NCBI RefSeq assembly: GCF_004010195.1
Contig: NC_057757.1
Coordinates: forward strand, 4,312,314 to 4,376,313
DNA: 64,000 bases
From: Chiloscyllium plagiosum
Lineage: Eukaryota
Direction: 5' to 3'
In this document: positions 34,255-59,000 of the stretch, piece after piece
Numbering within the stretch: the first letter of the stretch is position 1
How the letters are laid out: every line of letters begins with the position of its first letter
The notes under the pieces: generated by a model
Seen by the model: only the letters and a program-made list of their open reading frames with translations
Database searches by the model: none
Told to the model about the DNA's origin: nothing
Position numbers and translations under genes: made by a program

Positions 34255-34270
34255 CTATTCCTGCATCATA
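33693..34270 (+). other. Candidate terminal (3'UTR) exon of gene A
   Basis: gctaac branch + atttctttcctgactttcag acceptor; repeat-free; AATAAA at 34249-34254. Confidence 0.5.
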
Positions 34271-34860: not shown

Positions 34861-37037
34861 GAATGAACCTTCCAGCTCAGCGAGCAAACTCACATCCTGA
34901 ATTTCAGCTTCCCAACCATTATTCCATGGAATCAGTCGACACGATAATACTTTGGCAAAATGAAACGGTGTTGCCAAAACAAAAGTTCCATGTTTTGTGT
35001 CTAATAATGTGAGAGGTGAAAGGATGGTTGTGGTTGTTAGAGGTCCATCATCTCATCTGCAGGACATGTCTGTGAGAGTTCCTCAGGGTAGTGTCCTAGG
35101 CCCAACCATCTTCAGCTGCTTCATCAATGACCTTCCCTCCATCATAAGTCCAGTTTACTGACAATTGATCCTTGTGGTTTTTTCAACCTCTATAAGGCCT
35201 CCTCTCAACCCTCCCANNNNNNNNNNNNNNNNNNNNNNNNNNNNNNNNNNNNNNNNNNNNNNNNNNNNNNNNNNNNNNNNNNNNNNNNNNNNNNNNNNNN
35301 NNNNNNNNNNNNNNNNNNNNNNNNNNNNNNNNNNNNNNNNNNNNNNNNNNNNNNNNNNNNNNNNNNNNNNNNNNNNNNNNNNNNNNNNNNNNNNNNNNNN
35401 NNNNNNNNNNNNNNNNNNNNNNNNNNNNNNNNNNNNNNNNNNNNNNNNNNNNNNNNNNNNNNNNNNNNNNNNNNNNNNNNNNNNNNNNNNNNNNNNNNNN
35501 NNNNNNNNNNNNNNNNNNNNNNNNNNNNNNNNNNNNNNNNNNNNNNNNNNNNNNNNNNNNNNNNNNNNNNNNNNNNNNNNNNNNNNNNNNNNNNNNNNNN
35601 NNNNNNNNNNNNNNNNNNNNNNNNNNNNNNNNNNNNNNNNNNNNNNNNNNNNNNNNNNNNNNNNNNNNNNNNNNNNNNNNNNNNNNNNNNNNNNNNNNNN
35701 NNNNNNNNNNNNNNNNTTTATTATCTATCCATCTGTCTGTCTACCTATCTGACTGTATGTCTATCTATCTATCTATCTGTCTGTCTGTATATCTGTCAGT
35801 CCGTCCGTCTATCTATCCATTTCTTTGTCTGTCTATGTATCCATCTGTCTGTCTGTCTGTTTATCTGTCTGTCTACATATGTATCCATTTATCTATCTAA
35901 TCCGTTCCAACATATCTGTCGCTGTGATTGTTTTATCGAAAATGGAAAACTTTTTTCGATCCAGACTCACTCCATTTCACCTTTATAATATTCCAGTGGA
36001 CCACATTTATCAACATTTTTATTAAACAGTGAAGGATCAGGTACGGATGTTGAGATTGCTTTAGAAAAGACTTAATGCAGGTGTTAAATTACTGATTGTA
36101 AGACATGAGCTTGGTCCTAGATGTTGTCAGATTTTAAATCCACTTCATGAAAGCAAGGTTGTTCAATTTTGAGTATGATTTGGTTAATGCTGACACCTCA
36201 GGGCAGGACAGAGGTGAGTTACAGAGAGACATTGCAAACACAGCCTGGTTAATGCTCACATCTCAGGGCAGGACACAGCTGAGTAAAATGAGAGACATTA
36301 CAAACACAGCCTGGTTAATGCTCATATCTCAGGGCAGGACAGAGCTGAGTAACAGAGAAACATTACAAACACGGCCTGATTAATACTGATATCTCAGGAC
36401 AGGACAGGCTGGAGTAGCTCAGAACCTCCTTTGCTCGAGTTTAATAATCTGATTAATTTCCCCCTGGGTATGGACACGTACAGCAGGTCGCTTGAAAAAT
36501 CTTGGTTTAAGGAATACACCCACCCCACTCGATATTGGAACAATCTTGGATAACAGTATTAATGACTCTCGCCCATTTTGTCTGCTGTCTTTATTGTACA
36601 TTGCACACAGCTAGAACTTCCTTTCTATGGGATTTCCGCTGTCACCATCAGAATAATGTGCTCAGTGTCCCTGTTGTGTTTTCAGAGACACAGATCAGGA
36701 GGTTAGAGTCTGAGATCTCTCAGGAAGGAGCTGATATGAGGAGTTGATGCCACGATCCCTATTGACAGCTGAATGTCTCAACCAGCAGCAACGTTTGCCC
36801 CCAGGCCCATTGACTGCTTTAGGTTAGGAAACGGCAGATTGTTGTCATATTATACTCAATTCTCAGCCACTGGTACCAAGAACAGAACATTGATGCCCTG
36901 GGCACTGTATCTGGGGAGTTGTGTCACCATGGGGACAGTCAGGCTGCAGTATATGGATATGTGTCTATCTCTCACCCACATGCTCAGTCTCTCTTATTGC
37001 TGATAGAGAATGAGATCTCTTAGTTTAAAGATATTAC

Positions 37038-37058
37038 CTCCATGTCCGTGACGATAAC
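37038..37058 (-). CDS. Microexon, 21 nt, GYRHGHG
   Basis: tctgtttgttccacag|GTTATCGTCACGGACATGGAG|gtaata. Confidence 0.8.
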
Positions 37059-40000
37059 CTGTGGAACAAACAGATTGGTGTTAATTCAAAACCTACATCG
37101 AGTCATACAGCACAGAACAGACCCTTCAGCCCAACCAGTCCATGCCGACCATAATTCCAAACTGAACCAGTCCCACCTGCCTGCTCCTGGCCCGTTTCTC
37201 TCCAAACCTTTCCTATTCATGGATTTATCTCAGTGTCATTTCAATGTTGCAACTGTTCCAGCATCCACCACTTCCTCAGGAAGTTCATTCCACACATGAT
37301 CCACCCTCTGTGCAAAAAAGGTTACCCCTCGTATCTTTGTGGAGAAAGTGAGGACTGCAGATACTGGAGATCAAAGCTGAAAATGTGTTGCTGGAAAGGC
37401 GCAGCAGGTCAGGCAGCATCCAGGGAACAGGAGAAGAAGGGCTTATGCCCAAAACGTTGATTCTCCTGTTCCCTGGATGCTGCCTGACCTGCTGCGCTTT
37501 TCCAGCAACACATTTTCAGCTCTACCCCTCGTATCTGCGTGTCTGCGTGGGTTTCCTCCGGGTGCTCCGGTTTCCTCCCACAGTCCAAAGATGTGCAGGT
37601 AAAGTGAATTGGCCATGCTAAATTGCCCATAGTGTTAGATAAGGGGTAAATGTAGGGGTATGGGTGGGTTGTGCTTTGGCGGGTCGGTGTGGACTTGTTG
37701 GGCCGAAGGGCCTGTTTCCACACTGTCATGTAATCTAATCTAAACCTCTGCAAGGGCACCTCTCAATCTCTTCTGCTCTAGTGAAGAAAGGCCCAGCCTA
37801 TCCAGCCTTTCACACGACAATTACTGTTCCATTGGGAATTTCACAGATCGTGGTTTGGGGATGTTCGCTTAAAAGGAAATGAACATCACAGTTCAAACTC
37901 AATTTATACATTTCTCCTTTGTTAATGAGATACTCAGCACGTGAGTGAAGTACCTATCAAAACTATATGCCTGTCTATCAGTTTATCTATCTATCTATCT
38001 ATTTAACTGTCTGCCTATCTATCTATCTGCCTGTCTACCTATATGTCCAACTATCTGTCTGTCGACATATGTATGTATGTACAGTTTTTCGGAAAATGAT
38101 TTATGCTTTCCTCTTCAGTCTGACTCCATTTCACCTTCATAATATCCCAATTGATCACATTTATCAACATTTTTATGAAGCACTGAAGAATGAAGAATGG
38201 ATGTTGAGATTGCCTCAGAAAAGATGTAATGCAGATGTTAAGTGACTGATTGTAAAACAGGAGCTTGGTCCGAGATGTCCTGAGATTTTATATCCACTTT
38301 AGGACAGCAAGTGGATAATTTTCAGTATGTTCTGGTTAATGCTCACGTCTCAGGGCAGTACAGAGCTGTGTAACAGAGAAATATTGCAAACACAGCCTGG
38401 TTAATGCTGACATCTCAGGGCAGGACAGAACTGAGTAACAGAGAAACATTACAAACCCAGCCTGGTTAATGCTCACATCTCAGGGCAGGACAGAGCTGCG
38501 TAGCAGAGGAAAATTACAAACACAGCCTGGTTAATGTTCACATCTCAGGGCAGGACAGAGCTGAGTAACAGAGAGACATTACAAATACAGCCTGGTTAAT
38601 GTTCACATCTCAGGGCAGGACAGAGCTGAGTAACAGAGAGACATTGCAAACACAGCCCGGTTAATGCTCACATCTCAGCGCAGGACAGAGCTGAGTAACA
38701 GAGAAACAGTACAAACACAGCTTGCTTAATGCTCACATCTTAGGGAAGGACAGGCTGGAGTAGCTCAGAACCTCCTTTGCTCGAGTTTAATAATCTGATT
38801 AATTTCCCCCTGGGTATGGACACGTACAGCAGGTCGCTTGAAATATCTTGCTTTAAGGAATACACCCACCCCACTCGATATTGGAACAATCTTGGATAAC
38901 AGTATTAATGACTCTCGCCCATATTGTCTGCTGTCTTTATTGTACATTGCACACAGCAAGAACTTCCTTTCTATGGGATTTCCGCAGTTACCATCAGAAT
39001 AATGTGCTCAGTGTCCCTGAAGTGTTTTAAGAGACACAGATCAGGAGGTCAGAGTCTGAGATCTCTCAGGAAGGAGCTGATATGGGGAGTTGATGCCATG
39101 ATTCCTATTGACAGCTGAATGTCTCAACCAGCAGCAACGTTTGGCACCAGGGCCATTGACTGCTTTAAGTTAGGAAAAGGCAGATTGGTGTCATATTATA
39201 GTCAATTCTCAGCCACTGGTACCAAGAACAGAACATTGATGCCCTGGGCACTGTATCTGGGGAGTTGTGTCACCATGGGGACAGTCAGGCTGCAGTATAT
39301 GGATATGTGTCTATCTCTCACCCACATGCTCAGTCTCTCTTATTGGTGATAGAGAATGAGAACTCTTAGATTAAAGATATTACCTCCATATCCGGGACCA
39401 TAACCTGTGGAATAAACAGATTGTTGTTAATTCAAAACCTGCATCGGGTCATACAGCACAGAACAGTCCTTTCAGCCCAACCAGTCCATGCCGACCATAA
39501 TTCCAAACTAAACCAGTCCCACCTGCCTGCTCCTGGCCCGTTTCTCTCCAAACCTTTCCTATTCATGGATTTATCTCAGTGTCATTTCAATGTTGCAACT
39601 GTTCCAGCATCCACCACTTCCTCAGGAAGTTCATTCCACACATGATCCACCCTCTGTGCAAAAAAGGTTACCCCTCGTATCTGTTTTAAAGCTCTTAAAG
39701 ATGTGCCGCCTAGTCTTGACATCCCCCATCCGATGGAAAATACACATATCACGAACTCTGTCTGTAGCCCTCACTCACTTTATAGACCTCTGCAAGGGCA
39801 CCTCTCAATCTCCTCTGCTCCAGTGGAGAAAGGCCCAGCCTATCCAGCCTTTCACACAACACTTACTGTTCCATTGGGAATTTCACAGATCGTGGTTTGG
39901 GGATGTTCGCTTAAAAGGAAATGAACATCACAGTTCAAACTCAATTTATACATTTCTCCTTTGTTAATGAGATAATCAGCATGTGAGTGAAATACCTATG

Positions 40001-43000
40001 TAACTATTTGCCTGTCTGTCGGTCTATCTATCTATTTAACTATCTACCTATCTATCTATCTGTCTATCTATCTGCCTGTCTGCCTGTCTACCTATGAGTC
40101 CATCTATCTGTCTGGCTATGTATCTATGTATGTATGTGTAGGCTTTAGGAAAATGACTTATGCTTTCCTCTTCAGTCTGACTCCATTTCACCTTTATAAT
40201 ATTCCAGTGGATCACATTTATTGACATTTTTATGAAACACTGAAGAATGAAGAATGGATGTTGAGATTGCTTCAGAAAAGATTTAATGCAGATGTTAAGT
40301 GACTGATTGTAAAACGTGAGCTTGGTGCGAGATATCTTGTGATTTTATATCCATTTTAGGACAGCAAGGATGCTCAATTTTGAATCTGATCGGGTTCAGG
40401 CTCACATCTCAGGGCAGGACAGAGCTGAGTAACAGAGAGACATTGCAAACACAGACTGGTTAATGCTCACATCTCAGGGCAGCACAGAGCTGAAGAACAG
40501 AGGGACATTGCAAACGCAGCCTGGTTAATGCTCACATCTCAGGGCAGGACAGAGCTGAGTAACAGAGAGACTTTGCAAACACAGCCTGTTTAATGCTCAC
40601 ATCTCAGGACAGGACAGATCTGAGTAACAGCGAAACACTGCAAACACAGCCTGTTTAATGCTCACATCTCAGGACAGGACAGAGCTGAGTAACAGAAACA
40701 TTGCAAACACAGCCTGGTTGATACTGACATCTCAAGGCTGCACTTGCTGTAGTACCTCAGTGGCCAGCGTTTAATAATCTGATCAATTTCCCCCTGGGTA
40801 TGGACACGTACCGCAGGTCGATTAAATATCTTGCTTTAAGGATTACACCCACCCCACTCGATATTGGAACAGTCTTGGATAACAGTATTAATGATTCTCG
40901 CCCATTTTGTTTGCTGTCTTTATTGTACTTTGCACACAGCAAGAACAGCCTTTCTATGGGATTTCCGCTGTCACAATCAGAATAATGCGTTCAGTGTCTC
41001 TGTTGTGTTTTCAGAGACACAGATCAGGAGGTTAGAGTCTGAGATCTCTCAGGAAGGAGCTGATATGGGAAGTTGACGCCACGATCCCTAGTGACAGCTG
41101 ATTGTCTCAACCAGCAGCAACGTTTGGCCCCAGGCCCATTGACTGCTTTAGGTTAGGAAACGGCAGATTGTTGTCATATTATAGTCAATTCTCAGCCACT
41201 GGTACCAAGAACAGAACATTGATGCCCTGGGCACTGTATCTGGGGAGTTGTGTCACCATGGAGACAGTCAGGGTGCAGGATATAGATATGTGTCTATCTC
41301 TCGCCCACATGCTCAGTCTCTCTATCCTTATTGCTGATAGAGAATGAGAACTCTTAGATTAAAGATATTACCTCCATGTCCGGGACCATAACCTGTGGAA
41401 CAAACAGATTGGTGTCAATTCAAAACCTGCATCGAGTCATACAGCACAGAACAGACCCTTCGGCCCAACCAGTCCATCCCGACCATAATCCCAAACTAAA
41501 CCACTCCCTCCTGCCTGCTCCTGGCCCGTTCCTCTCCAAACGTTTCCTAATCATGGATTCATCTCAGTGTCATTTCAATGTTGCAACTGTTCCAGCATCC
41601 ACCACTTCCTCAGGAAGTTCATTCCACACATGATTCACCCTCTGTGCAAAAAAGGTTACCCCTCGTATCTGTTTTAAAGCTCTTAAAATTGTGCCGCCTC
41701 GTCTTGACATCCACCATCCGAGGGAAAATACACAACTCTGTCTATAGCCCTCACTCACTTTATAGACCTCTGCAACGGCACCTCTCAATCTCCTCTGCTC
41801 CAGTGAAGAAAGGCCCAGCCTATCCAGCCTTTCACACGACAATTACTGTTCCATTGGGAATTTCACAGATCGTGGTTTGGGGATGTTCACTTAAAAGGAA
41901 ATGAACATCACAGTTCAAACTCAATTTATACATTTCTCCTTTGTTAATGAGATAATCAGCACGTGAGTGAAATCCTATCTAACTATATGCCTGTCTGTCG
42001 GTCTATCTATCTACCTATCTATCTATTTAACTATCTACCTATCTATCTAACTGTCTATCTATCTGCCTGTCTGCCTGTCTACCTATGAGTCCATCTATCT
42101 GTCTGGCTATGTATCTATGTATGTATGTATAGGCTTTAGGAAAATGATTTATGCTTTCCTCTTCAGTCTGACTCCATTTCACCTTTATAATATTCTAGTG
42201 GATCACATTTATTGACATTTTTATGAAACACTGAAGGATGAAGAATGGATGTTGAGATTGCTTCAGAAAAGATTTAATGCAGATGTTAAGTGACTGATTG
42301 TAAAACATGAGCTTGGTGCGAGATGTCCTGAGATTTTATATCCACTTTAGGACAGCAAGGTAGGACAATTTTGAATCTGATCGGGTTCAGGCTCACATCA
42401 CAGAGCAGGACAGAGCTGAAGAACAGAGAGACATTGCAAACACAGCCTGGTTAATGCTGACATCTCAGGACAGGACAGAGCTGAGTAACAGAGAGACATT
42501 GCAAACACAGCCTGGTTAATGCTCACATCTCAGGGCAGGACAGAACTGAGTAACAGAGAAACATTGCAAACGCAGCCTGTTTAATGCTCACATCTCAGGG
42601 CAGGACAGAACTGAGTAACAGAGAAACATTGCAAACACAGCCAGTTTAATGCTCACATCACAGGACAGGAGAGAGCTGAGTAACAGAGAAACACTGCATA
42701 CACAGCCTGTTTAATGCTCACATCTTAGGACAGGACAGAGCTGAGTAACAGAAACATTGCAAACACAGTCTGGTTAATGCTGACATCTCAGGGAAGGACA
42801 GGCTGTAGTAACTCAGTAGCCAGCATTTAATAATCTGATCAATTTCCCCTTGGGTATGGACACGTAAGCAGGTCGATTAAATATCTTGCTTTAAGGATTA
42901 CACCCACCCCACTCGATATTGGAACAATCTTGGATAACAGTATTAATGACTCTCGCCCATTTTGTTTGCTGTCTTTATTGTACTTTGCACACAGCAAGAA

Positions 43001-44060
43001 CGACCTTTCTGTGGGATTTCCGCTGTCACCATCAGAATAATGTGCTCAGTGTCCCTGTTGTGTTTTCAGAGACACAGATCAGGAGGTTAGAGTCTGAGAT
43101 CTCTCAGGAAGGAGCTGATATGGGGAGTTGATGCCATGATCCCTATTGACAGCTGAATGTCTCAACCAGCAGCAACGTTTGCCCCCAGGCCCATTGACTG
43201 CTTTAGGTTAGGAAAAGGCAGATTGTTGTCAGATTATAGTCAATTCTCAGCCACTGGTACCAAGAACAGAACATTGATGCCCTGGGCACTGTATCTGGGG
43301 AGTTGTGTCGCCATGGGGACAGTCAGGGTGCAGGATATAGATATGTGTCTATCTCTCACCCACATGCTCAGTCTCTCTTATTGCTAATAGAGAATGAGAT
43401 CTCTTAGATTAAAGATATTACCTCCATGTTCGCCACGGTAACCTGTGGAACAAACAGATTGGTGTCAATTCAAAACCTGCATCGAGTCATACAGCACAGA
43501 ACAGACCCTTCGGCCCAACCAGTCCATGCCGACCATAATCCCAAACTAAACCAGTCCCACCTGCCTGCTCCTGGCCCGTTTCTCTCCAAACCTTTCCTAA
43601 TCATGGATTCATCTCAGTGTCATTTCAATGTTGCAACTGTTCCAGCATCCACCACTTCCTCAGGAAGTTCATTCCACACATGATCCACACTCTGTGCAAA
43701 AAAGGTTACCCCTCGTATCTGTTTTAAAGCTCTTAAAAATGTGCCGCCTTGTCTTGACACCCCCCATCCGAGGGAAAATACACAACTCTGTCTATAGCCC
43801 TCACTCACTTTATAGATCTCTGCAAGGGCACCTCTCAATCTCCTCTGCTCCAGTGAAGAAAGGCCCAGCCGATCCAGCCTTTCACACGACAATTACTGTT
43901 CCATTGGGAATTTCACAGATCATGGTTTGGGAATGTTCGCTTAAAAGGAAATGAACATCACAGTTGGAACTCAATTTATACACTTCTCCTTTGTTAATGA
44001 GATAATCAGCACGTCAGTGAAATACCTATCTAACTATATGCCTGTCTGTCGGTCTATCTC

Positions 44061-44148
<88 letters not shown>

Positions 44149-47100
44149 CCTGTCTGCCTGTCTACCGATGTGTCCATCTATCTGTCTATGTATCTATGTG
44201 TGTATAGGCTTTAGGAAAATGATTTATGCTTTCCTCTTCAGTCTGACTCCATTTCACCTTTATAATATTCCAGTGAATCACATTTATTGACATTTTTATG
44301 AAACACTGAAGGATGAAGAATGGATGTTAAGATTGCTTCAGAAAAGATTTAATGCAGATGTTAAGTGACTGATTGTAAAACCTGAGCTTTGTGCGAGATG
44401 TCCTGAGATTTTATATCCATTTTAGGACAGCAAGGATGTTCAATTTTCAATCTGATCGGGTTCAGGCTCACATCTCAGGGCAGGACAGAGCTGAAGAACA
44501 GAGAGACATTGCAAACACAGCCTGGTTAATGCTGACATCTCAGGGCAGGACAGAACTGAGGAACAGAGAAACACTGCAAACGCAGCCTGTTTAATTTTCA
44601 CATCTCAGGACAGGACAGAGCTGAGTAACAGAGAAACACTGCAAACACAGTGTGTTTAATGCTCACATCTCAGGACAGGACAGAGCTGAGTAACAGAGAA
44701 ACATGCACAAACACAATCTGGTTAATGCTGACATCTCAGGGAAGGACAGGCTGTAGTAACTCAGTAGTCAGCATTTAATATTCTGATCAATTTCCCCCTG
44801 GGTATGGACACGTAAGCAGTTCGATTAAATATCTTGCTTTAAGGATTACACCCACCCCACTCAATATTGGAACAATCTTGGATAACAGTATTAATGACTC
44901 TCGCCCATTTTGTCTGCTGTCTTTATTGTACATTGCACACAGCAAGAACGACCTTTCTATGGGATTTCCGCTGTCACCATCAGAATAATGTGCTCAGTGT
45001 CCCTGTTGCGTATTCAGAGACAATGATCAGGAGGTTAGAGTCTGAGATCTCTCAGGAAGGAGCTGATATGGGGAGTTGACGCCACGATCCCTATTGACAG
45101 CTGAATGTCTCAACCAGCAGCAACGTTTGCCCCCAGGCCCATTGACTGCTTTAGGTTAGGAAAAGGCAGATTGTTGTCATATTATAGTCAATTCTCAGCC
45201 ACTGGTACCAAGAACAGAACATTGATGCCCTGGGCACTGTATCTGGGGAGTTGTGTCACCATGGAGACAGTCAGGGTGCAGGATATAGATATGTGTCTAT
45301 CTCTCACCCACATGCTCAGTCTCTCTTATTGCTGATAGAGAATGAGAACTCTTAGATTAAAGATATTACCTCCATGTCTGGGACCATAACCTGTGGAATA
45401 AACAGATTGGTGTCAATTCAAAACCTGCATCGAGTCATACAGCACAGAACAGACCCTTCGGCCCAACCAATCCATGCCGACCATAATCCCAAACTAAACC
45501 AGTCCTACCTGCCTGCTCCTGGCCCATTTCTCTCCAAACCTTTCCTATTCATGGATTTATCTCAGTGTCATTTCAATGTTGCAACTGTTCCAGCATCCAC
45601 CACTTCCTCAGGAATTTCATTCCACACATGATCCACACTCTGTGCAAAAAAGGTTACCCCTCGTACCTGTTTTAAAGCTCTTAAAAATGTGCCGCCTAGT
45701 ATTGACACACCCCATATTAGGGAAAATACACATAACATTAACTCTGTCTATAGCCCTCACTCACTTTATAGACCTCTGCAAGGGCACCTCTCAATCTCCT
45801 CTGCTCCAGTGAAGAAAGGCCCAGCCTATCCAGCCTTTCACACGACACTTACTGTTCCATTGGGAATTTCACAGATCGTGGTTTGGGGATGTTTGCTTAA
45901 AAGGAAATGAACATCACAGTTCAAACTCAATTTATACATTTCTCCTTTGTTAATGAGATCATCAGCACGTGAGTGAAATACCTATCTAACTATATGCCTG
46001 TCTGTCGGTCTATCTATCTATCTATCTATTTAACTATCTACCTATCTATCTATCTGTCTATCTATCTGCCTGTCTGCCTGTCGGCCATTGAGTCCATCTA
46101 TCGGTCTGACTATGTATCTATGTATGTATGTATAGGCTTTAGGAAAATGATTTATGCTTTTCTCTTCAGTCTGACTCCATTTCACCTTTATAATATTCCA
46201 GTGGATCACATTTATTGACATTTTTATGAAACACTGAAGGATGAAGAATGGATGTTGAGATTGCTTCAGAAAAGATTTAATGCAGATGTTAAGTGACTGA
46301 TTGTAAAACGTGAGCTTGGTGCGAGATGTCCTGAGATTTTATATCCACTTTAGGACAGCAAGGATGTTCAATTTTGAATCTGATCGGGTTCAGGCTCACA
46401 TCTCAGGACAGGACAGAGCTGAGTAACAGAAACATTGCAAACACAGTCTGGTTAATACTGACATCTCAGGGCAGGACAGGCTGTAGTAACTCAGTGGCCA
46501 GCGTTCAATAATCTGATCAATTTTCCCCTGGGTATGGACACGTACAGCAGGTCGATTAAATATCTTGCTTTAAGGATTACACCCACCCCACTCGATATTG
46601 GAACAATCTTGGATAACAGTATTAATGACTCTCGTCCATTTTGTCTGCTGTCTTTATTGTACTTTGCACACAGCAAGAACGACCTTTCTATGGGATTTCC
46701 ACTGTCACCATCAGAATAATGTGCTCAGTGTCTCTGTTGTGTTTTCAGAGACACAGATCAGGAGGTNNNNNNNNNNNNNNNNNNNNNNNNNNNNNNNNNN
46801 NNNNNNNNNNNNNNNNNNNNNNNNNNNNNNNNNNNNNNNNNNNNNNNNNNNNNNNNNNNNNNNNNNNNNNNNNNNNNNNNNNNNNNNNNNNNNNNNNNNN
46901 NNNNNNNNNNNNNNNNNNNNNNNNNNNNNNNNNNNNNNNNNNNNNNNNNNNNNNNNNNNNNNNNNNNNNNNNNNNNNNNNNNNNNNNNNNNNNNNNNNNN
47001 NNNNNNNNNNNNNNNNNNNNNNNNNNNNNNNNNNNNNNNNNNNNNNNNNNNNNNNNNNNNNNNNNNNNNNNNNNNNNNNNNNNNNNNNNNNNNNNNNNNN

Positions 47101-48147
47101 NNNNNNNNNNNNNNNNNNNNNNNNNNNNNNNNNNNNNNNNNNNNNNNNNNNNNNNNNNNNNNNNNNNNNNNNNNNNNNNNNNNNNNNNNNNNNNNNNNNN
47201 NNNNNNNNNNNNNNNNNNNNNNNNNNNNNNNNNNNNNNNNNNNNNNNNNNNNNNNNNNNNNNNNNNNNNNNNNNNNNNNNNNNNNNNNNNNNNNNNNNNN
47301 NNNNNNNNNNNNNNNNNNNNNNNNNNNTTATAGTCAATTCTCAGCCACTGGTACCAAGAACAGAACATTGATGCCCTGGGCACTGTATCTGGGGAGTTGT
47401 GTCACCATGGAGACAGTCAGGGTGCAGGATATAGATATGTGTCTATCTCTCACCCACATGCTCAGTCTCTCTTATTGCTGATAGAGAATGAGAACTCTTA
47501 GATTAAAGATATTACCTCCATGTCCGCCATGGTAACCTGTGGAACAAACAGATTGGTGTCAATTCAAAACCTGCATCGAGTCATACAGCACGGAACAGAC
47601 CCTTCGGCCCAATCAGTCCATGCCGACCATAATCCCAAACTAAACCAGTCCCACCTGCCTGCTCCTGGCCCGTTTCTCTCCAAACCTTTCCTACTCATGG
47701 ATTCATCTCAGTGTCATTTCAATGTTGCAACTGTTCCAGCATCCACCACTTCCTCAGGAAGTTCATTCCACACATGATCCACACTCTGTGCAAAAAAGGT
47801 TACCCCTCGTATCTGTTTTAAAGCTCTTAAAAATGTGCCGCCTCGTCTTGACATCCCCCATCCGAGGGAAAATACACAACTCTGTCTATAGCCCTCACTC
47901 ACTTTATAGATCTCTGCAAGGGCACCTCTCAATCTCCTCTGCTCCAGTGAAGAAAGGCCCAGCCTATCCAGCCTTTCACACGACAATTACTGTTCCATTG
48001 GGAATTTCACAGATTGTGGGTTGGGGATGTTTGCTTAAAAGGAAATGAACATCACAGTTGAAACTCAATTTATACATTTCTCCTTTGTTAATGAGATAAT
48101 CAGCACGTGAGTGAAATACCTATCTAACTATATGCTTGTCTGTCTGC

Positions 48148-48203
<56 letters not shown>

Positions 48204-49962
48204 TTAACTATCTACCTATCTATCTGTCTGTCTATCTATCTGCCTGTCTGCCTGTCTACCTATGAGTCCATCTATCTATCTGACTATGTATCTATGTATG
48301 TGTGTATAGGCTTTAGGAAAATGATTTATGCTTTCCTCTTCAGTCTGACTCCATTTCACCTTTATAATATTCTAGTGGATCACATTTATTGACATTTTTA
48401 TGAAACACTGAAGGATGAAGAATGGATGTTAAGATCGCTTCAGAAAAGATTTAATGCAGATGTTAAGTGACTGATTGTAAAACGTGAGCTTGGTGCGAGA
48501 TGTCCTGAGGTTTTATATCCATTTTAGGACAGCAAGGATGTTCAATTTTCAATCTGATCAGGTTCAGGCTCACATCTCAGGGCAGGACAGAGCTGAAGAA
48601 CAGAGAGACATTGCAAACACAGTCTGGTTAATGCTCACATCTCAGGGCAGGACAGAGTTGAGTAACAGAGAAACATTACAAACACAGCCTGGTTAATGCT
48701 CACATCTCAGGAAAGGACAGGCTGTAGTAACTCAGTAGCCAGCATTTAGTAATCTGATCTATTTCCCCCTACAGCACGTACAGCAGGTCCGATTAAATAT
48801 CTTGCTTTAAGGAATACACCCACCTCACTCGATATTGGAACAATCTTGGATAACAGTATTAATGACTCTCGCCCATTTTGTCTGCTGTCTTTATTGTACA
48901 TTGCACACAGAAAGAACGACCTTTCTATGGGACTTCCGCTGTCACCATCAGAATAATGTGCTCAGTGTCCCTGTTGTGTTTTCAGAGACACAGATCAGGA
49001 GGTTAGAGTCTGAGATCTCTCAGGAAGGAGCTGATATGGGGAGTTGATGCCACGATCCCTATTGACAGCTGAATGTCTCAACCAGCAGCAACGTTTGCCC
49101 CCAGGCCCATTGACTGCTTTAGGTTAGGAAACGGCAGATTGTTGTCATATTATAGTCAATTCTCAGCCACTGGTACCAAGAACAGAACATTGATGCCCTG
49201 GGCACTGAATCTGGGGAGTTGTGTCACCATGGAGACAGTCAGGGTGCAGGATATGGATATGTGTCTATCTCTCACCCACATTCTCAGTTTCTCTATCCTT
49301 ATTGCTGATAGAGAATGAGATATCTTAGATTAAAGATATCCACCATCATGACCTGTAGAACAAACAGATTGGTGTCACTTCAAAACCTACATAGAGTCAT
49401 ACAGCATGGAAACAGACCATTCAGCCCTACTAGTCTGTGCTGACCATAATCCCACATTAGACTAGTCCCAGCTGCCTACTCCTGGCCCATATCCCTCCCG
49501 ACCTCTCCCATTCCGGCACTGATCTAAGTGGCATTTAAACATTGTTACATTACCCATACTCACCACTTCCTCAGGAGATTCATTCAACAGTCCAACCACT
49601 CTGCGTAAAAGATAATTTGTCCCTCCTATCTTTTTAAAATCTTTCTCCTCTTTCCTCAAGAAACATGTCCCCGTCTTGAAACCAGCTCCCCCCCCCCATT
49701 CCAGGGAAAATACACACGGCATTAACTCTATCTATAGTTAATCATTTTATAAACCTCTATAAGGTCACCTCTCATCCTCCTGCACTGCAGTGAAAAAAGT
49801 CCCAGTCTATCCAGCCTTTCACACGACAATTACTGTTCAATTTGGAACTTGACAGATTGTGGGTTGGGGATGTTCACTCAAAAGGAAATGAACATCACAG
49901 TTCAAACTCATTGTGTTGAGGATATTCTCAAATCATCAGTGAAATATCTATCTGACTGACTG

Positions 49963-50016
<54 letters not shown>

Positions 50017-53000
50017 CATCTATCTATCTATCTGTCTATCAGTTTAACAACTTAATGCAGTTGTTAAGTTACTGAGTGTAGAACATTAGTTTGGTCCGAG
50101 ATATTGTCAGATTTTATATCCACTTTGAGAAAGCAAAGTTGTTCAATTTTGTGCATCATCTGGTTAATGCTCACATCACGGGACAGGGCAGAGCTAAATT
50201 GCCCCACAGTGTCCGGGTATGTGCAGGTTAGGGTGGATTGGCCGTGCTGAATTGTCCCATCGTGTCCAGGGATGTGCAGGTTAGGATAGATTGGCCGTGC
50301 TAAATTGTCCCATCGTGTCCAGGGATGTGCAGGTTAGGGTGGATTGGCCGTGCTAAATTGTCCCATAGTGTCCAGGGATGTGCAGGTTAGGGTGGATTGG
50401 CTGTGGAAAATGTGAGGAGATGGTTCAGGGTGAGCTGAATTCAAATTCCACCATCTGGCAGTGGCAGGTTTCGAACCCGGGTCCCTAGACTCTCTGGATT
50501 AACATAATAGCACTAAGCCATTCCTGACTGAATTTTCGTAAACCTGGACACCGCTTTTAAACCATTAATGCTTACCACAGTATATAACTGAACCTCAAGG
50601 GGGTCTACATCCCACTCACCCAACCACACATCGACGACCAAACCTTCCACCCAATGTTATATCCAGCAGCCGAAAAATCCTTGGGAACCCATGGGCTTTG
50701 ACATAGTTGGCCAGATNNNNNNNNNNNNNNNNNNNNNNNNNNNNNNNNNNNNNNNNNNNNNNNNNNNNNNNNNNNNNNNNNNNNNNNNNNNNNNNNNNNN
50801 NNNNNNNNNNNNNNNNNNNNNNNNNNNNNNNNNNNNNNNNNNNNNNNNNNNNNNNNNNNNNNNNNNNNNNNNNNNNNNNNNNNNNNNNNNNNNNNNNNNN
50901 NNNNNNNNNNNNNNNNNNNNNNNNNNNNNNNNNNNNNNNNNNNNNNNNNNNNNNNNNNNNNNNNNNNNNNNNNNNNNNNNNNNNNNNNNNNNNNNNNNNN
51001 NNNNNNNNNNNNNNNNNNNNNNNNNNNNNNNNNNNNNNNNNNNNNNNNNNNNNNNNNNNNNNNNNNNNNNNNNNNNNNNNNNNNNNNNNNNNNNNNNNNN
51101 NNNNNNNNNNNNNNNNNNNNNNNNNNNNNNNNNNNNNNNNNNNNNNNNNNNNNNNNNNNNNNNNNNNNNNNNNNNNNNNNNNNNNNNNNNNNNNNNNNNN
51201 NNNNNNNNNNNNNNNNAGGTTAAATGGATGAGCATAGCCAGCCATCAGAGCGATTTTTGCTATTTTGACAATTTCCCTGCTCACTGACCGCAGGATTGTT
51301 TGGGAGTGAGAAGCTGTTTCCCCTGGGACTTTTAAAATTCTGTTTGGGTTTGCACAGGCACCATCTTCAAATATACTGATGATGTCCTCCATTTCTTAGT
51401 GAAGCTACAGCTGGTGGTTTGAGTGACCGGGCAGCTCAGTGTTTATCACTGCTGCCCTGTGGTGCCAGGGATATGGGTTTGATTCCAACACCAGGTGAGT
51501 GTCTGTCTGTGTGGAGCATGCATGTTCTTTCTGTGTGGGTTTCCTCCTGCAGTCCAAAAGTATGCAGATTGGGTGGATTTGTAGATTCATAGAACCCCGA
51601 CAAAATGCTAGATCGTCCCAACAGTATCCAGGAACAGGCAGGCTAATAGGGTTCACTATAGGAGATGCAGGGATGGAGTGGGGTGCTCGTTCGAGGGTCA
51701 ATGTGGTTGAATGGCCTGCTTCATTGTTAGATTCCTGCTATCTGAGGTTTATCTTTGTAATGGTAGACATTGTGTTTTCTGTATTATCTATATCTTGTAA
51801 TTACAGAAGATGTGCCTTGGTACGTTTGTATCTAAGTTGGCGCTGTCATTGGTGAAGTATAAACGTTTGACTGTACTCGTTGCGTAGATGTGACAATAAA
51901 GGCTACTCTATTCTACATCCTCTGGTAACATGATGTGGAGGTGCCAGCGTTGGATTGGGGTAGGTAAGGTCAGAAGTCACACAACAATAGGTTATAACCC
52001 AACAGGTTTATTTGAAATCACAAGCTTTCAGAATGCTGTCTGGTGAAGTGAGCTCTTCTGATGAAGGAGCAGAATTCCCATGAGTTGTGATTTCAAGTAA
52101 ACCTATTGGACTATAACCTGGTGTTGTGTGATTTCTGACACTGTTAACACACATACTTATTGCTTGACAAGTAACTTCATAGACAAGGTCTTTACTTCAA
52201 TAATTTTGAAGAGCTAATGGGAGGAAATTAGAGAAAACTTTACCATAATCGCCATAACCTCCGTAACCTGAGGAGACAAGAGAGATTTGAGTTAATGTTG
52301 TCATGGAGATTGCAGCCTCACAGCGCCAGAGACCCGAGTTCAATTCCCGCCTCAGGCGACTGACTGTGTGGAGTTTGCACATTCTCCCTGTGACTGCGTG
52401 GGTTTCCTCCGGGTGCTCCGGTTTCCTCCCACAATCCAAAAATGTGCAGGTTAGGTGAATTGGCCACGCTAAATTGCCCGTAGTGTTAGGTAAGGGGTAA
52501 ATGTAGGAGAATGGGTCTGGGTGGGTTACGCTTCGGCAGGTCGGTGTGGACTTGTTGGGCCGAAGGGCCTGTTTCCACACTGTAGGTAATCTAATTCAAA
52601 TCTAATTGGTTTTGGAATCTACATGTTCAGCCACACAATCAGTTTGACAATGGGTCATGTCCAAAGATTTCAAGTTGACGTTGCTCATTCAAAATTCAAA
52701 TGGACTCCACCTTTCAAAATTAGTTTCTTTCAGTTTATTGATCCTTCCCCTTCGCTCAGATAAATATCACACTTTTGAGGGAAATGGTATTCTGGATTGT
52801 ACTATCTCCCTCAAATCATGGGGGAGGTACACGGAAGGGTGATTGGAGAGACAGGTGTGATTTTCCCTCCCCTCCACCTATCCCTAGAGGCAGGAATGGT
52901 GGGAGATCAATTCTTCCTGCGGTCGGTACCTAATTTACTCAATTTAATGGCCAATTTGCAGTCGTTTCCCGCTCCCCCTTCAACCCAAAACCTCCACTGC

Positions 53001-56000
53001 CAGCATTTCATCAGCATCAGGATGATCCCCAAAATCTTTATACCCAATGTCGATGGGGTGGCATGGTGGCTCAGTGGTTAGTGCTGCTGCCTCACAGTGC
53101 CAGGGTCTGAGGTTTGACTCCTGTCTCAGGTGACTGTCTGTGTGGAGTTTGTGCATTTTTCCTGTGTCTGTGTGGTTTCCCTCCCACAGTCCAAAGATGT
53201 GCATGTTAGTGTGGATTGGCCGTGTTAAATTGTTCCATATAATCCAGGGACATGCAGGCTAATAGGGTTAACCATGGGAGTTACAGGGTTGGAGGGGGAT
53301 GATCTTTGGAGGGATATGTTGACTGAATGGCCTGTTTCCATATTTTATTGATTCTATGATCTCCCAGACAGAATCTGTCATTGCTATTTTCCTGCCACTG
53401 GAATTTTATCTTTGTAATGGTGGACATTGTGTTTTCTGTATTATCGAAATCTTGTAACTACAGACGTTGTGCCTGGGTACTTTTGCATCTAAGCTGGCAC
53501 TGTCATTGGTGAAGTATAAACATTTGACTGTACTCGTTGCGTAGATTGACAATAAAAGCTACTCTACTCTATTCTACATCCTCTGATAACATGACGTGGA
53601 GGTGCCAGCGTTGGATCGGGGTAGGTAAGGTCAGAAGTCACATGACACCAGATTATATCCCAACAAGTTTATTTTGAAATCACAAGCTTTCAGAGTGTTG
53701 TCAGACGAAGTGAGTTCTCCTGATGAAGGAGCAGCGCTCCAATGAGTTGTGATTTCAAATAAACGTGTTGGAAAATTACCTGCTATCGTATACCCTCTGA
53801 TTCTGATAACAGGCATAATTATTCCTTGACCAGTAACGTCATAGACAAGGGCTTTACTTCACTAATTTTGAAGAGCTAATGGTAAGAAATCAAAGAGAAA
53901 ACTTTACCATAACCACCATAACCTTTGTAACCTGAGGAGACAAGGGAGATTTGAGTTAATGTTGTCATGGAGATTGGTTTTGGAATCTACATGTTCAGCC
54001 ACACAATCAGTTTGACAACGGTTCATGTCCAAAGATTTCAACTTGACGTTGCACATTCAAAATTCAAATGGACTCCACCTTTCGAAATTAGTTTCTTTCA
54101 GTTTATCAATCTTTCCCCTTCATTCAGATAAGTATCACATTCTTGAAGGAAATGATTTTGTGGATTGTACTATCTCCTTCAAATCATGGGGTGAGTCACG
54201 GGAGGGTAACAGCAGAGACAGGTGTGATTTTCCTTCCCCTCCACCTATTCTCAAAAGCAGGAATGGTAAAAGCTCAATTCTTTCTGTGGTCAGTAGCTAA
54301 TTCACACAATTTAACAGGAGAAAGTGAGGTCTGCAGATGCTGGAGATCAGAGCTGAAAATGCGTTGCTGGAAAAGCGCAGCAGGTCAGGCAGCATCCAGG
54401 GAACAGGAGAATCGACGTTTCGGGCATAAGCCCTTCCTGTTGCTGCGCTTTTCCAGCAACACATTTTCAGCACACAATTTAATAGCCAATTTGCAGTGGC
54501 TTCCACCCCATAGCCCACCTCTACTGCCAGCATTTCATCAGCATCAGAATGATCCCCAAATTCGTTACACCCGATGTCAATGGGGTGGCATGGTGGCTCA
54601 GTGGTTAGTGCTGCTGCCTCACAGTGCTAGGAACCCAGGTTTGATTCCAGCCTTCGGTGACTGGCTACGTGGAGTTTGTGCATTTTCGTCGTGTCTGTGT
54701 GGGTTTCCTTATACAGTCCAAAGATGTGTAGGTTTGTGTGCTTTGGCCATGTCAAATTATCCCGTATTATCCAGGGACATGCAGGCTAATAGGATTAGCC
54801 ATGGGAGTTGCAGGGTTGGAGGGGGATTGTCTTTGGAAGGAGATGTGGGCTAAATGGTGTGCTTCCACAGTATGATTTTTCTATGATTTCCCAGACAGAA
54901 TCTATCATTGCTATATTCCTGCTATTGGAGTTTTGTCTTTGTAATGGTGGGCATTGTTATTGGAGTTTTGTCTTTGTAATGGTGGGCATTGTGTTTTCTG
55001 TATTATCTAAATCTTGTCACTATAGAAGCTGTGCCTGGGTACGTTTGTATCTAAGCTGGCGCTGTCATTGGTGAAGTATAAATGATTCACTGTACACATT
55101 GAGTAGATGTGTCAATAAAGGCTACTCTATTCTCCATCCTCTGGTAACATGATGTGGAGGTGCCAGTGTTGGATTGGGGTAGGTAAGGTCAAACGTCACA
55201 CGACACCAGGTTATAACCCAACAAGGTTATTTGAAATCACAAGCTTTCAGAGCATTGTCTGGTGAAGTGAGTTCTCCTGATAAAGGATCAGCGCTTCAAT
55301 GGGTTGTGATTTCAAATAAACCTGATGGACTATTACCTGGTGTCGTGTAACCTCTTACTCACATACTTATTCCTTGACCAGTAGCTTCATAGACAAGGGC
55401 TTTATTTCATTAATTTTGAAGAGCTAATGGGAGGAAATTAAACAGAAAACTTTACCATAACCGCGTCCGTGACCTGAGGAGACAAGAGAGATTTGAGTTA
55501 ATGTTGTCATGGAGATTGGAATCTACATGTTCAGCCACACAATCAGTTTGACAATGGTTCATGTCCAAAGATTTCAACTTGACGTTGCTCATTCAAAATT
55601 CAAAATGGACTCCACCTTTCGAAATTAGTTTCTTTCAATTTATTGATCCTTCCCCTTCGCTCAGATAAATATCGAACTCTTGAGGGAAGTGATATTCTGG
55701 ATTGTTGTATCTCCCTCAAATCATGGGGGAGTCACGGAAGGGTGATGGGAGAGACAGCTATCCCCAAAAGCAGGAATGGTAAAAGCTCAATTCTTCCTGT
55801 GGTCGGTAGCTAATTCACTCAATTTAATCGCCAATTTGCAGTTGTTTCCCGCTCCACCTTCACCCCCAAACCTCTACGGCCAGCATTTCCCTAACCCCCC
55901 AAACTCTACTGCCAGCATTTCATCAGCATCAGGATGATNNNNNNNNNNNNNNNNNNNNNNNNNNNNNNNNNNNNNNNNNNNNNNNNNNNNNNNNNNNNNN

Positions 56001-59000
56001 NNNNNNNNNNNNNNNNNNNNNNNNNNNNNNNNNNNNNNNNNNNNNNNNNNNNNNNNNNNNNNNNNNNNNNNNNNNNNNNNNNNNNNNNNNNNNNNNNNNN
56101 NNNNNNNNNNNNNNNNNNNNNNNNNNNNNNNNNNNNNNNNNNNNNNNNNNNNNNNNNNNNNNNNNNNNNNNNNNNNNNNNNNNNNNNNNNNNNNNNNNNN
56201 NNNNNNNNNNNNNNNNNNNNNNNNNNNNNNNNNNNNNNNNNNNNNNNNNNNNNNNNNNNNNNNNNNNNNNNNNNNNNNNNNNNNNNNNNNNNNNNNNNNN
56301 NNNNNNNNNNNNNNNNNNNNNNNNNNNNNNNNNNNNNNNNNNNNNNNNNNNNNNNNNNNNNNNNNNNNNNNNNNNNNNNNNNNNNNNNNNNNNNNNNNNN
56401 NNNNNNNNNNNNNNNNNNNNNNNNNNNNNNNNNNNNNNNNNNNNNNNNNNNNNNNNNNNNNNNNNNNNNNNNNNNNNNNNNNNNNNNNNNNNNNNNNNNN
56501 NNNNNNNNNNNNNNNNNNNNNNNNNNNNNNNNNNNNNNNNNNNNNNNNNNNNNNNNNNNNNNNNNNNNNNNNNNNNNNNNNNNNNNNNNNNNNNNNNNNN
56601 NNNNNNNNNNNNNNNNNNNNNNNNNNNNNNNNNNNNNNNNNNNNNNNNNNNNNNNNNNNNNNNNNNNNNNNNNNNNNNNNNNNNNNNNNNNNNNNNNNNN
56701 NNNNNNNNNNNNNNNNNNNNNNNNNNNNNNNNNNNNNNNNNNNNNNNNNNNNNNNNNNNNNNNNNNNNNNNNNNNNNNNNNNNNNNNNNNNNNNNNNNNN
56801 NNNNNNNNNNNNNNNNNNNNNNNNNNNNNNNNNNNNNNNNNNNNNNNNNNNNNNNNCAAATCATGGGGGAGTCACGGAAGGGTGATGGGAGAGACAGCTA
56901 TCCCCAAAAGCAGGAATGGTAAAAGCTCAATTCTTCCTGTGGTCGGTAGCTAATTCACTCAATTTAATTGCCAATTTGCAGTTGTTTCCCGCTCCACCTT
57001 CACCCCCAAACCTCTACGGCCAGCATTTCCCTAAACCCCCAAACTCTACTGCCAGCATTTCATCAGCATCAGGATGAGTCCTAAAATCTTTTTACCCAAT
57101 GTTGATGCAGTGGCATGATGGCTCCATGGTTAGTGCTGCTGCCTCATAGTGCCTGGAACCCAGGTTTGATTCCAACCTCAGGTGAATGTCTGTGTGACAC
57201 TTGTGCATTTTCCCTGTGTCTGCGTGTGTTTCCTCCCACCGTCCAAAGATGGACAGCCTAGTGTACCTTGACCATTTTAAATTGTCCCATAGTACCCAAG
57301 GATATGCAGGCTAATAGCGTTAACCATGGGAGTTGCAGGGATGGATTGGGATGCTCTTTTAGGGTCAATGTGGGCTGAATGGCCTGCTTCTACACTGTGA
57401 ATATTCCATGAATTCCCAGACAGAATGTGTCATTGCTATATTCCTGCTATTGGAGTTTTGTCTTTGTAATGGTGGACATTGTGTTTTCTGTATTATCTAA
57501 ATCTTGTAACTACAGAAGCTGCGCCTGGGTACGTTTTGTATCTAATTTGGCGCTGTCATTGGTGAAGTGTAAATGATTCACTGTACTCGTTGAGTAGATG
57601 TGTCAATAAAGGCTACTCTACTCTATTCTCCATCCTCTGGTAACATGATGTGGAGGTGCCAGCGTTGGATTGGGGTAGGTAATGTCAAACGTCACACGAC
57701 ACCAGGTTATAACCCAACAGGTTTATTTGAAATCACAAGCTTTCAGAGCGTTATCTGGTGAAGTGAGTTCTGCTGATAAAGGATCAGCGCTCCAATGGGT
57801 TGTGATTTCAAATAAACCTGATGGACTATTACCTGGTGTCGTGTAACCTCTTACTCACATACTTATTCCTTGACCAGTAACTTCATAGACAAGGGCTTTA
57901 TTTCATTAATTTTGAAGAGCTAATGGGATGAAATTAAAGAGAAAATTTTACCATAACCGCCGCGGCCTTTTTTACCTGAGGAGACAAGAGAGATTTGAAT
58001 TAATGTTGTCATGGAGATTGGTTTTGGAATCTACATGTTCAGCCACACAATCAGTTTGACAATGGTTCATGTCCAAAGATTTCAACTTGACGTTGCTCAT
58101 TCAAAATTCAAAATGGACTCCACCTTTAGAAATTAGTTTCTTTCAATTTATTGATCCTTCCCCTTCGCTCAGATAAATATCGAACTCTTGAGGGAAGTGA
58201 TATTCTGGATTGTAGTATCTCCCTCAAATCATGGGGGAGTCACGGAAGGGTGATGGGAGAGACAGCTATCCCCAAAAGCAGGAATGGTAAAAGCTCAATT
58301 CTTCCTGTGGTTAGGAGCTAGTTCACTCAATTTAATGGCCAATTTGCAGTCGTTTCCCACTCCACCTTCACCCCCATACCACGGCAGCCAGCATTTCCCT
58401 AAACCCCCAAACTCTACTGCCAGAATTTCATCAGCACCAGGATGATCCCCAAAATCTTTATACCCAATGTTGATGCAGTGGCATGATGGCTCCGTGGTTA
58501 GTGCTGCTGCCTCATAGTGCCTGGAACCCAGGTTTGATTCCAACCTCAGGTAAATGTCTGTGTGACGCTTGTGTCTGCGTGTGTTTCCTCCCACCGTCCA
58601 AAGATGGACAGCCTAGTGTACCGTGACCATTTTAAATTGTCCCATCGTACCCAAGGATATGCAGGCTAATAGCATTAACCATGGGAGTTGCAGGGATGGA
58701 TTGGGATGCTCTTTTAGGGTCAATGTGGGCTGAATGGCCTGCTTCTACACTGTGAATATTCCATGAATTCCCAGACAGAATCTGTCATTGCTATATTCCT
58801 GCTATTGGAGTTTTGTCTTTGTAATGGTGGGCATTGTGTTTTCTGTATTATCTAAATCTTGTGACTACCAAAGCTGTGCCTGGGTACGTTTGTTGGCGCT
58901 GTCATTGGTGAAGTATAAACGTTTCACTGTACCCGTTGAGTAGATGTGACAATAAAGGCTATTCTCCATCCTCTGGTAACATGATGTGGAGCTGTCAGCG

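Follow-up and report, generated by a model that had tools for sequence, protein, structure and literature searches.

The window analysed here is a 64,000-nucleotide stretch of the genome of the shark Chiloscyllium plagiosum (NC_057757.1, positions 4,312,314 to 4,376,313 of the forward strand; G000:C48:4312314-4376313 in the genome as searched, 3.56 Gb in 101,977 contigs). It carries three repeat arrays and five N gaps, three of them exactly 500 N. Array 2, the subject of this work, lies on the minus strand and holds six micro-exons of 21 nt, one in each unit of about 2 kb. It is highly probable that these exons belong to a real gene, which is predicted to encode a small secreted protein of Gly, Tyr and His. 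The gene family to which it belongs is apparently undescribed.

Exons and repeat units of array 2

All six exons listed in the original prediction, which was made from the sequence alone, were found with their predicted peptides, each 21 nt long and in phase 1. The acceptor TTCCACAG precedes and the donor GTAATA follows every one of them. The claim that the outermost unit has lost its donor also holds. Its counterpart is intact in a sister copy (C90234:809). The features of the array are:

47516..47536, minus strand: micro-exon GYHGGHG, 21 nt, phase 1, intact splice sites
45370..45390, minus strand: micro-exon GYGPRHG, 21 nt, intact splice sites
43422..43442, minus strand: micro-exon GYRGEHG, 21 nt, intact splice sites
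41372..41392, minus strand: micro-exon GYGPGHG, 21 nt, intact splice sites
39384..39404, minus strand: micro-exon GYGPGYG, 21 nt, intact splice sites
37038..37058, minus strand: micro-exon GYRHGHG, 21 nt, intact splice sites
49341..49352, minus strand: damaged first unit; acceptor kept, exon-like stretch of only 12 nt, GTAATA donor without its TA
41393..43442, minus strand: one full repeat unit, 2050 nt (exon, locus-specific intron, 65-bp minisatellite, GATA microsatellite, CR1-like 3' end, acceptor)
42384..42812, no strand: 65-bp minisatellite, 6.6 copies by Tandem Repeats Finder (2.6-6.6 copies in the other units where this program reports a minisatellite)
41433..41842, minus strand, approximate limits: 3' fragment of a CR1-like long interspersed nuclear element (LINE), copied along with every unit
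46767..47327: N gap within array 2, 561 N, which may hide more units

A search of the whole genome for the acceptor followed by GTTAY returned seven matches, six in array 2 and one in the unplaced contig C100447, and the reversed control returned none. The array-2 exons are therefore not a chance pattern. A looser acceptor pattern matched 21 times: six times in the window, nine in a gene near C48:8.0 Mb, four in contigs C90234, C100447 and C99114, and once each in C7 and C47.

The 42 residues of the block comprise 21 Gly, 7 Tyr, 7 His, 3 Pro, 3 Arg and 1 Glu. The block had been described as His-rich. One residue in six is indeed His, but Gly dominates and Tyr equals His, so that a Gly-rich block is the better description.

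Spacing between units is 1816-2346 nt. The remainder of each unit had been put down to CR1, microsatellite and minisatellite sequence, and all three are present. In the 2050-nt unit, however, they amount to about 410 nt (20%) of CR1-like 3' end, 150 nt (7%) of microsatellite and 430 nt (21%) of minisatellite, and about 1050 nt (~51%) is intron specific to the locus. The fragment is taken to be CR1 from a C-terminal motif seen in its translation. Read on the minus strand, each copy of the minisatellite (42384-42812 and its equivalents) contains AG, 19 nt and GTGAGC; these stretches are exon-like yet out of frame, with 46-nt spacers. Only the last full unit has short-repeat insertions of about 400 bp (37337-37741), which bring its length to 2346 nt.

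The flanks of the 561-N gap lie about 146 nt apart in neighbouring units. Because of this, and because a further exon is found on contig C99114, six exons is a minimum.

Gene structure, reading frame and divergence

The first exon of the family is 55 nt long, with a TATA-like box upstream and a phase-1 donor. Its 18-residue product resembles a signal peptide, and a 15-nt exon follows. There are at least eight such first exons: the genome search found eight, seven of them intact with a TATA-like box and one with an early stop. The parts of the assembly that bear on the ends of the array-2 gene are:

35717-50716: array-2 piece, 15 kb, bounded on both sides by 500-N gaps
50436..50716, minus strand: intron 2 of the array-2 gene, 3' part, with 96.1% identity to C90234
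50717..51216: 500-N gap between array 2 and array 3
52244..63422, minus strand: array 3, eight exons of 18/24 nt, a different paralog; its signal exon lies 3.3 kb past the window end (L011:3270-3216), followed by a 15-nt exon
35717..36200, minus strand: tail of the last array-2 unit, ending in a microsatellite at a 500-N gap, 98% identical to the sister copy C100447

The 500-N gaps around the array-2 piece are read as scaffolding placeholders; its order and neighbours in the assembly are accordingly not guaranteed. That arrays 3 and 2 form one transcript, as the original prediction had raised, was favoured by their common strand, their adjacency and the array-3 cassette from promoter to intron 2, which is 97.5-98% identical and diverges at window coordinate 66195. 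Two unplaced contigs speak against it. C90234 runs within 5.3 kb from the signal exon through exon 2 straight to an intact array-2-type exon and lacks array 3. C96586 has the same form of intron 2 (97.1%), not that of array 3, with an N gap at the expected place of exons 1 and 2; placed on C90234, its end and the start of the array-2 piece adjoin exactly, with 0 bases between. On these alignments array 2 very likely shares no transcript with array 3, with a small residual doubt as no read bridges the gap. By this reading the assembly has wrongly set array 2 beside array 3, and a gene model that joins the two is very likely chimeric. A dead exon, a 21-nt exon-like stretch (GHGDGYK) with CAT for its acceptor, lies between exon 2 and array 3 at L011:1482-1462 on the minus strand.

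In public DNA runs of two samples the intron-2 segment occurs in two forms, that of the window and that of C90234, whose depths add up to about twice the depth of a nearby stretch. This hints at two loci rather than two alleles, contig depth being a poor measure. In three of four public DNA runs contigs begin exactly at 51217, and the loose end at 50716 is absent among the contigs shown.

At the 3' end the array-2 gene likely continues in C99114, to judge from the matching sequence ends. This contig starts in a microsatellite and has the last micro-exon at 726 (GYGYGYG), a 3' exon at 6212 and AATAAA at 6943; C100447 is its sister copy, 98-98.7% identical. The region 10446-35216, including the neighbourhood of 34035, was rejected as the site of a minus-strand last exon: it does contain the conserved 3' exon, but on the plus strand, whereas that of the sister contig lies on the strand of the array. 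The full gene would begin with a signal exon and exon 2, both within the N gap of C96586, continue with the six exons of the window and end on C99114 with one more micro-exon and the 3' exon. The predicted precursor would be secreted, with 18 + 5 + at least 49 + up to 29 residues, about 100 in total. Another chromosome has a lone copy of the last array-2-type unit, 700 bp long and 93% identical, with its CR1 end, GYGYGYG exon and flank (G000:C7:41738913, minus strand).

None of the three frames is closed in the six exons taken alone, and the choice of frame therefore depends on the 5' exons of 55 and 15 nt and on the family. In C90234 these two exons lie directly upstream of an array-2-type exon and give phase 1, which bears out both the exon reading and the frame proposed earlier. 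Stops over 77 family exons number 0 in phase 1, 5 in phase 0 and 23 in phase 2, a count biased by the choice of exons open in phase 1 and by the omission of the broken-donor units and of array-1 unit 16132, which has a phase-1 stop. Array-1 exons run into stops in phases 0 and 2, with the same bias.

Exons of the six window copies differ by 17.8% (56/315 pairwise), compared with 3.4% in the introns (217/6425; 430 flanking columns), and none of 390 intron 21-mers is as divergent as the exons. The changes are confined to exon positions 5-15, and the first and last Gly codons are fixed. A minimum of 9 changes in 21 exon columns contrasts with 36 in 430 intron columns (p=2e-4). The excess is retained in non-CpG columns (5/17 exon against 29/414 intron, p=0.007) and is accompanied by an excess of transversions in the exons (p=0.039); CpG accounts for three of the eight variable exon columns. 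With ten copies the overall excess persists (p=0.012-0.023).

Other arrays of the family behave in different ways. The 24-nt exons of array 3 also exceed their introns (25% against 13%). Two classes are conserved, namely GSGGYGT of array 4 (0% against 27% in introns) and VGP of array 1 (10% against 27%), and the two GKG classes differ about as much as their introns do.

The simplest reading of these patterns would be amplification of units and homogenisation of introns, with selection acting on the exons. The array may have grown by unequal crossing-over of whole 2-kb units. Selection would have varied the three central residues while the flanking Gly, Tyr and His-Gly stayed nearly fixed. Array 2 is a clean case of exons diverging faster than repeat units that are 99% non-coding.

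Iterated, homogenised introns are also described in the available part of a report on the MaSp2 spidroin genes of Argiope, where they are 97.6% identical within a gene (PMC9779670). The resemblance extends to clusters of secreted Gly-rich repeat genes built of repeated exon-plus-intron units with near-identical introns (96.6% next to the array-2 exons), to genes with two alternating intron types (arrays 1 and 4 here) and to termini common to paralogs. Unlike MaSp2, the array-2 unit codes for only 7 residues, its exons diverge more than its introns and the protein has about 100 residues. The shark family has a vertebrate host and lacks the spidroin terminal domains, and no homology is claimed. 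The micro-exon genes (MEGs) of Schistosoma also yield secreted, rapidly evolving proteins from symmetric micro-exons, and the signal peptide and symmetric micro-exons are found here as well. The array-2 exons differ in that a single unit, with a Gly/Tyr/His code, has been duplicated in tandem, and again no homology is claimed. By analogy, the array-2 gene appears to evolve like repeat-protein genes with iterated introns and to be built like a micro-exon gene.

Proposed function and alternatives

Array 2 probably forms the middle of a small secreted protein rich in Gly, Tyr and His. A tentative proposal, which falls a little short of an even chance, is that this protein is a pH- and metal-responsive filler, cross-linked through Tyr and His, in a structural material secreted by a gland, with the egg case as the most likely site. 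Its His residues would lose charge between an acidic granule and sea water; they would also bind Zn or Cu and add to oxidised Tyr. By calculation, the peptide of the six exons carries a charge of +8.8 at pH 5 and of +2.2 at pH 8.1 (His pKa of 6.5 assumed). This drop, together with a composition of one-half Gly and one-sixth each Tyr and His, would be in keeping with a His/Tyr switch like that of squid beak. The original prediction named metal binding, pH-triggered assembly and catechol-His cross-links, and these likewise appear to fit the composition. Long, conserved Lys/Tyr relatives and poly-His relatives suggest a structural toolkit. Koob and Cox in 1993 reportedly found Gly/Tyr-rich, catechol-tanned proteins in elasmobranch egg capsules.

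A wider version of the proposal is doubtful. It holds that array 2 belongs to an undescribed vertebrate family of secreted Gly/Tyr/His/Lys biomaterial proteins, and that this family supplies the non-collagen tanning proteins of the shark egg case, which are still unsequenced. Its paralogs would share a promoter-and-signal cassette, and their micro-exon arrays, which range from Lys-rich to poly-His, would be exchanged and adjusted in steps of seven residues to give a modular set of cross-linking parts.

Whatever its role, the family of array 2, if expressed, would be a multi-gene set of secreted proteins invisible to annotation based on open reading frames (ORFs). It would supply named candidates for the Gly/Tyr-rich parts of materials secreted by elasmobranchs, or else for a new class of defence peptides in sharks.

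The squid-beak proteins HBP-1 and HBP-2 resemble array 2 in their Gly/His/Tyr repeats, in the GHGxY motif, which here is formed at two exon junctions, and in a charge that falls as pH rises (PMC6884462, available part). The hydrophobic GAGFA-type linkers described there are absent from array 2, and an unrelated origin is presumed.

Several points weigh against the proposal. According to the same part of that source, self-coacervation takes four tandem GHGLY motifs, or two with a specific linker, whereas array 2 has two GHGxY (x = Gly, both across junctions) and four HGxY. Collagen is named as the main egg-capsule component in the accessible part of PMC10230700, and no link of the array-2 gene to the oviducal gland was found. 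Rapid amino-acid replacement is seen more typically in proteins of defence or reproduction. The usual purifying pattern appears in phase 0, with a proportion of synonymous differences (pS) of 0.32 above the nonsynonymous one (pN) of 0.145, as against pN 0.20 and pS 0.10 in phase 1. The non-CpG excess loses significance when ten copies are used (4/14 against 81/404, p=0.31), and the p values are rough throughout since array copies share history and are not independent. Exons 1 and 2 of the window copy lie unseen in an N gap, and no contig in four public DNA runs bridges the gap between arrays 2 and 3. Three RNA or RNA-guess runs gave no reads or contigs on the 3' exon at 85% likeness, two of them having been read to about 2% and 6%; this is no test.

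A silent, drifting amplification of one old exon and intron, with exon differences left by CpG decay and chance, would account for the lack of RNA in those runs, the broken first unit of the window copy, a sister-copy acceptor that reads CATAG and the orphan last exon on C7. The share of CpG among the variable exon columns and the fading of the non-CpG excess with ten copies point the same way. This explanation is nevertheless improbable: all six exons keep their length, frame and both splice sites, the six window copies show the non-CpG and transversion excess, and promoter and signal cassette are intact in the sister copy.

The main rival, though unlikely, is a secreted Gly/His-rich host-defence peptide that selection has diversified, after the pattern of type II crustins or Gly/His-rich antimicrobial peptides, and that may be trimmed at its X-Pro N-terminal dipeptides. 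The roughly five-fold faster divergence of exons over introns, a small cationic product, a tandem cluster with turnover and a broken copy, and the C1s-like and BIR genes within 100 kb would all agree with defence. Three paralogs carry an exon with 4-5 Cys that ends in a stop, in two of them in the penultimate exon with a donor after it. One of these exons matches the WAP profile at 23.6 bits against a cut-off of 20.8. The resulting order of signal, Gly-rich region and C-terminal Cys module is that of type II crustins in the available part of PMC8583803. Trappin/WFDC proteins have a similar layout. Against this, the Cys modules have 4-5 Cys rather than the 8 of the WAP core, and none was found for the array-2 gene, where a 1.4-kb gap is unseen. 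The WAP match covers only profile positions 10-34, with 5 Cys, so a full WAP protein was rejected for that exon, and the genome search listed no WAP match on C48. Sister arrays, moreover, are conserved and long, at more than 200 residues. Three signal-exon frames of 20 aa matched no Pfam family at E<=10, a weak test with queries so short; the same result gave no support to a resemblance to piscidin/pleurocidin precursors.

A real secreted gene serving another gland product (mucus, a seminal plug or gel, skin or tooth matrix, or metal sequestration), with no role in the egg case, is quite unlikely. It shares the gene anatomy of the egg-case proposal, and rapid divergence is generally known in reproductive secretions, but no positive evidence was found for any such tissue.

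Tropoelastin (ELN) of cartilaginous fish (PMC12733013, in the part available) also has a signal exon followed by many short, replicated, symmetric exons, and the shark family includes Gly/Pro/Val-rich relatives. Tropoelastin was rejected, as the 42 array-2 residues include no Lys and no KA/KP domains, and the 3' exon of C99114/C100447 lacks the Cys-pair/tetrabasic end, the 1.4-kb stretch upstream being a gap. Synteny with septin4/5 and limk1 was not supported, with 0 of 62 septin matches on C48; limk1 was not searched.

Introns of the SCPP/histatin family are in phase 0. This family was set aside, as the 55-nt signal exon gives phase 1 in 7/7 intact copies. Word-based searches gave no candidate protein homologue, a weak result with queries of 40-46 aa that include intron-coded residues, and the best Atlas score (0.82) is a lead only. 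A profile of the three Cys exons of the paralogs gave 285 hits at E<=0.001, and among the 150 listed none had at least three GYG/GKGY/GHG motifs or the family start. The family was not found in the literature searched, a coverage that mostly leaves out subscription journals and supplements; the available parts of PMC9999432, PMC8471067 and PMC7476000 contain nothing on it.

Gene family and neighbourhood

On the strength of related intron edges, arrays 1, 3 and 4 and the His-richer gene at 8.0 Mb are assigned to the same family as array 2. Array 1 is on the plus strand, with Lys/Tyr and Val/Pro exons, and its signal exon lies 28.8 kb before the window. The homologous 3' exon was found at seven places in the genome and at one more locally. 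This exon is mostly untranslated, as its copies keep no common reading frame. The likely end of the array-1 gene is formed by:

31885-31974, plus strand: Cys-rich exon with stop and donor, WAP 23.6 bits, profile 10-34, 5 Cys
33693-34270, plus strand: 3' exon with AATAAA

Within array 1 (1570-28279, plus strand) GKG-type and VGP-type 21-nt exons alternate with two intron types; several donors are broken and unit 16132 has a stop. Array 4 (window coordinates 93813-111553, minus strand) has GSGGYGT and GKGYGTT exons and a 4-Cys exon (L017:9080-8991, minus strand). It lies on separate scaffold pieces whose order looks scrambled.

The gene at G000:C48:7999143-8041232 (minus strand) has at least 21 alternating exons of 24/27 nt, of GKGGYGDY and GPYDHGHHH types, with the same acceptor as array 2. 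Its first exon was not found within the 60 kb read. At G000:C47:10441908-10450896 (plus strand), 24-nt Gly/Val/Pro/Lys micro-exons carry the array-2 acceptor sequence, which suggests a common origin of the two array types.

The neighbour scan covered 145 of 702 non-repeat ORFs and two exon frames, five obvious LINE pieces having been dropped from the top 150. TAF6 lies 1.5 Mb from the cluster. The flanks of the cluster carry two trypsin-family exons (L004:6876-7859 and L007:3405-4193, both plus strand), the first C1s-like by PDB search and with a CUB exon nearby. The flanks also carry a BIR exon and a rhodopsin-type G-protein-coupled receptor (L001:2312-2974, minus strand, and L020:4365-5387, plus strand).

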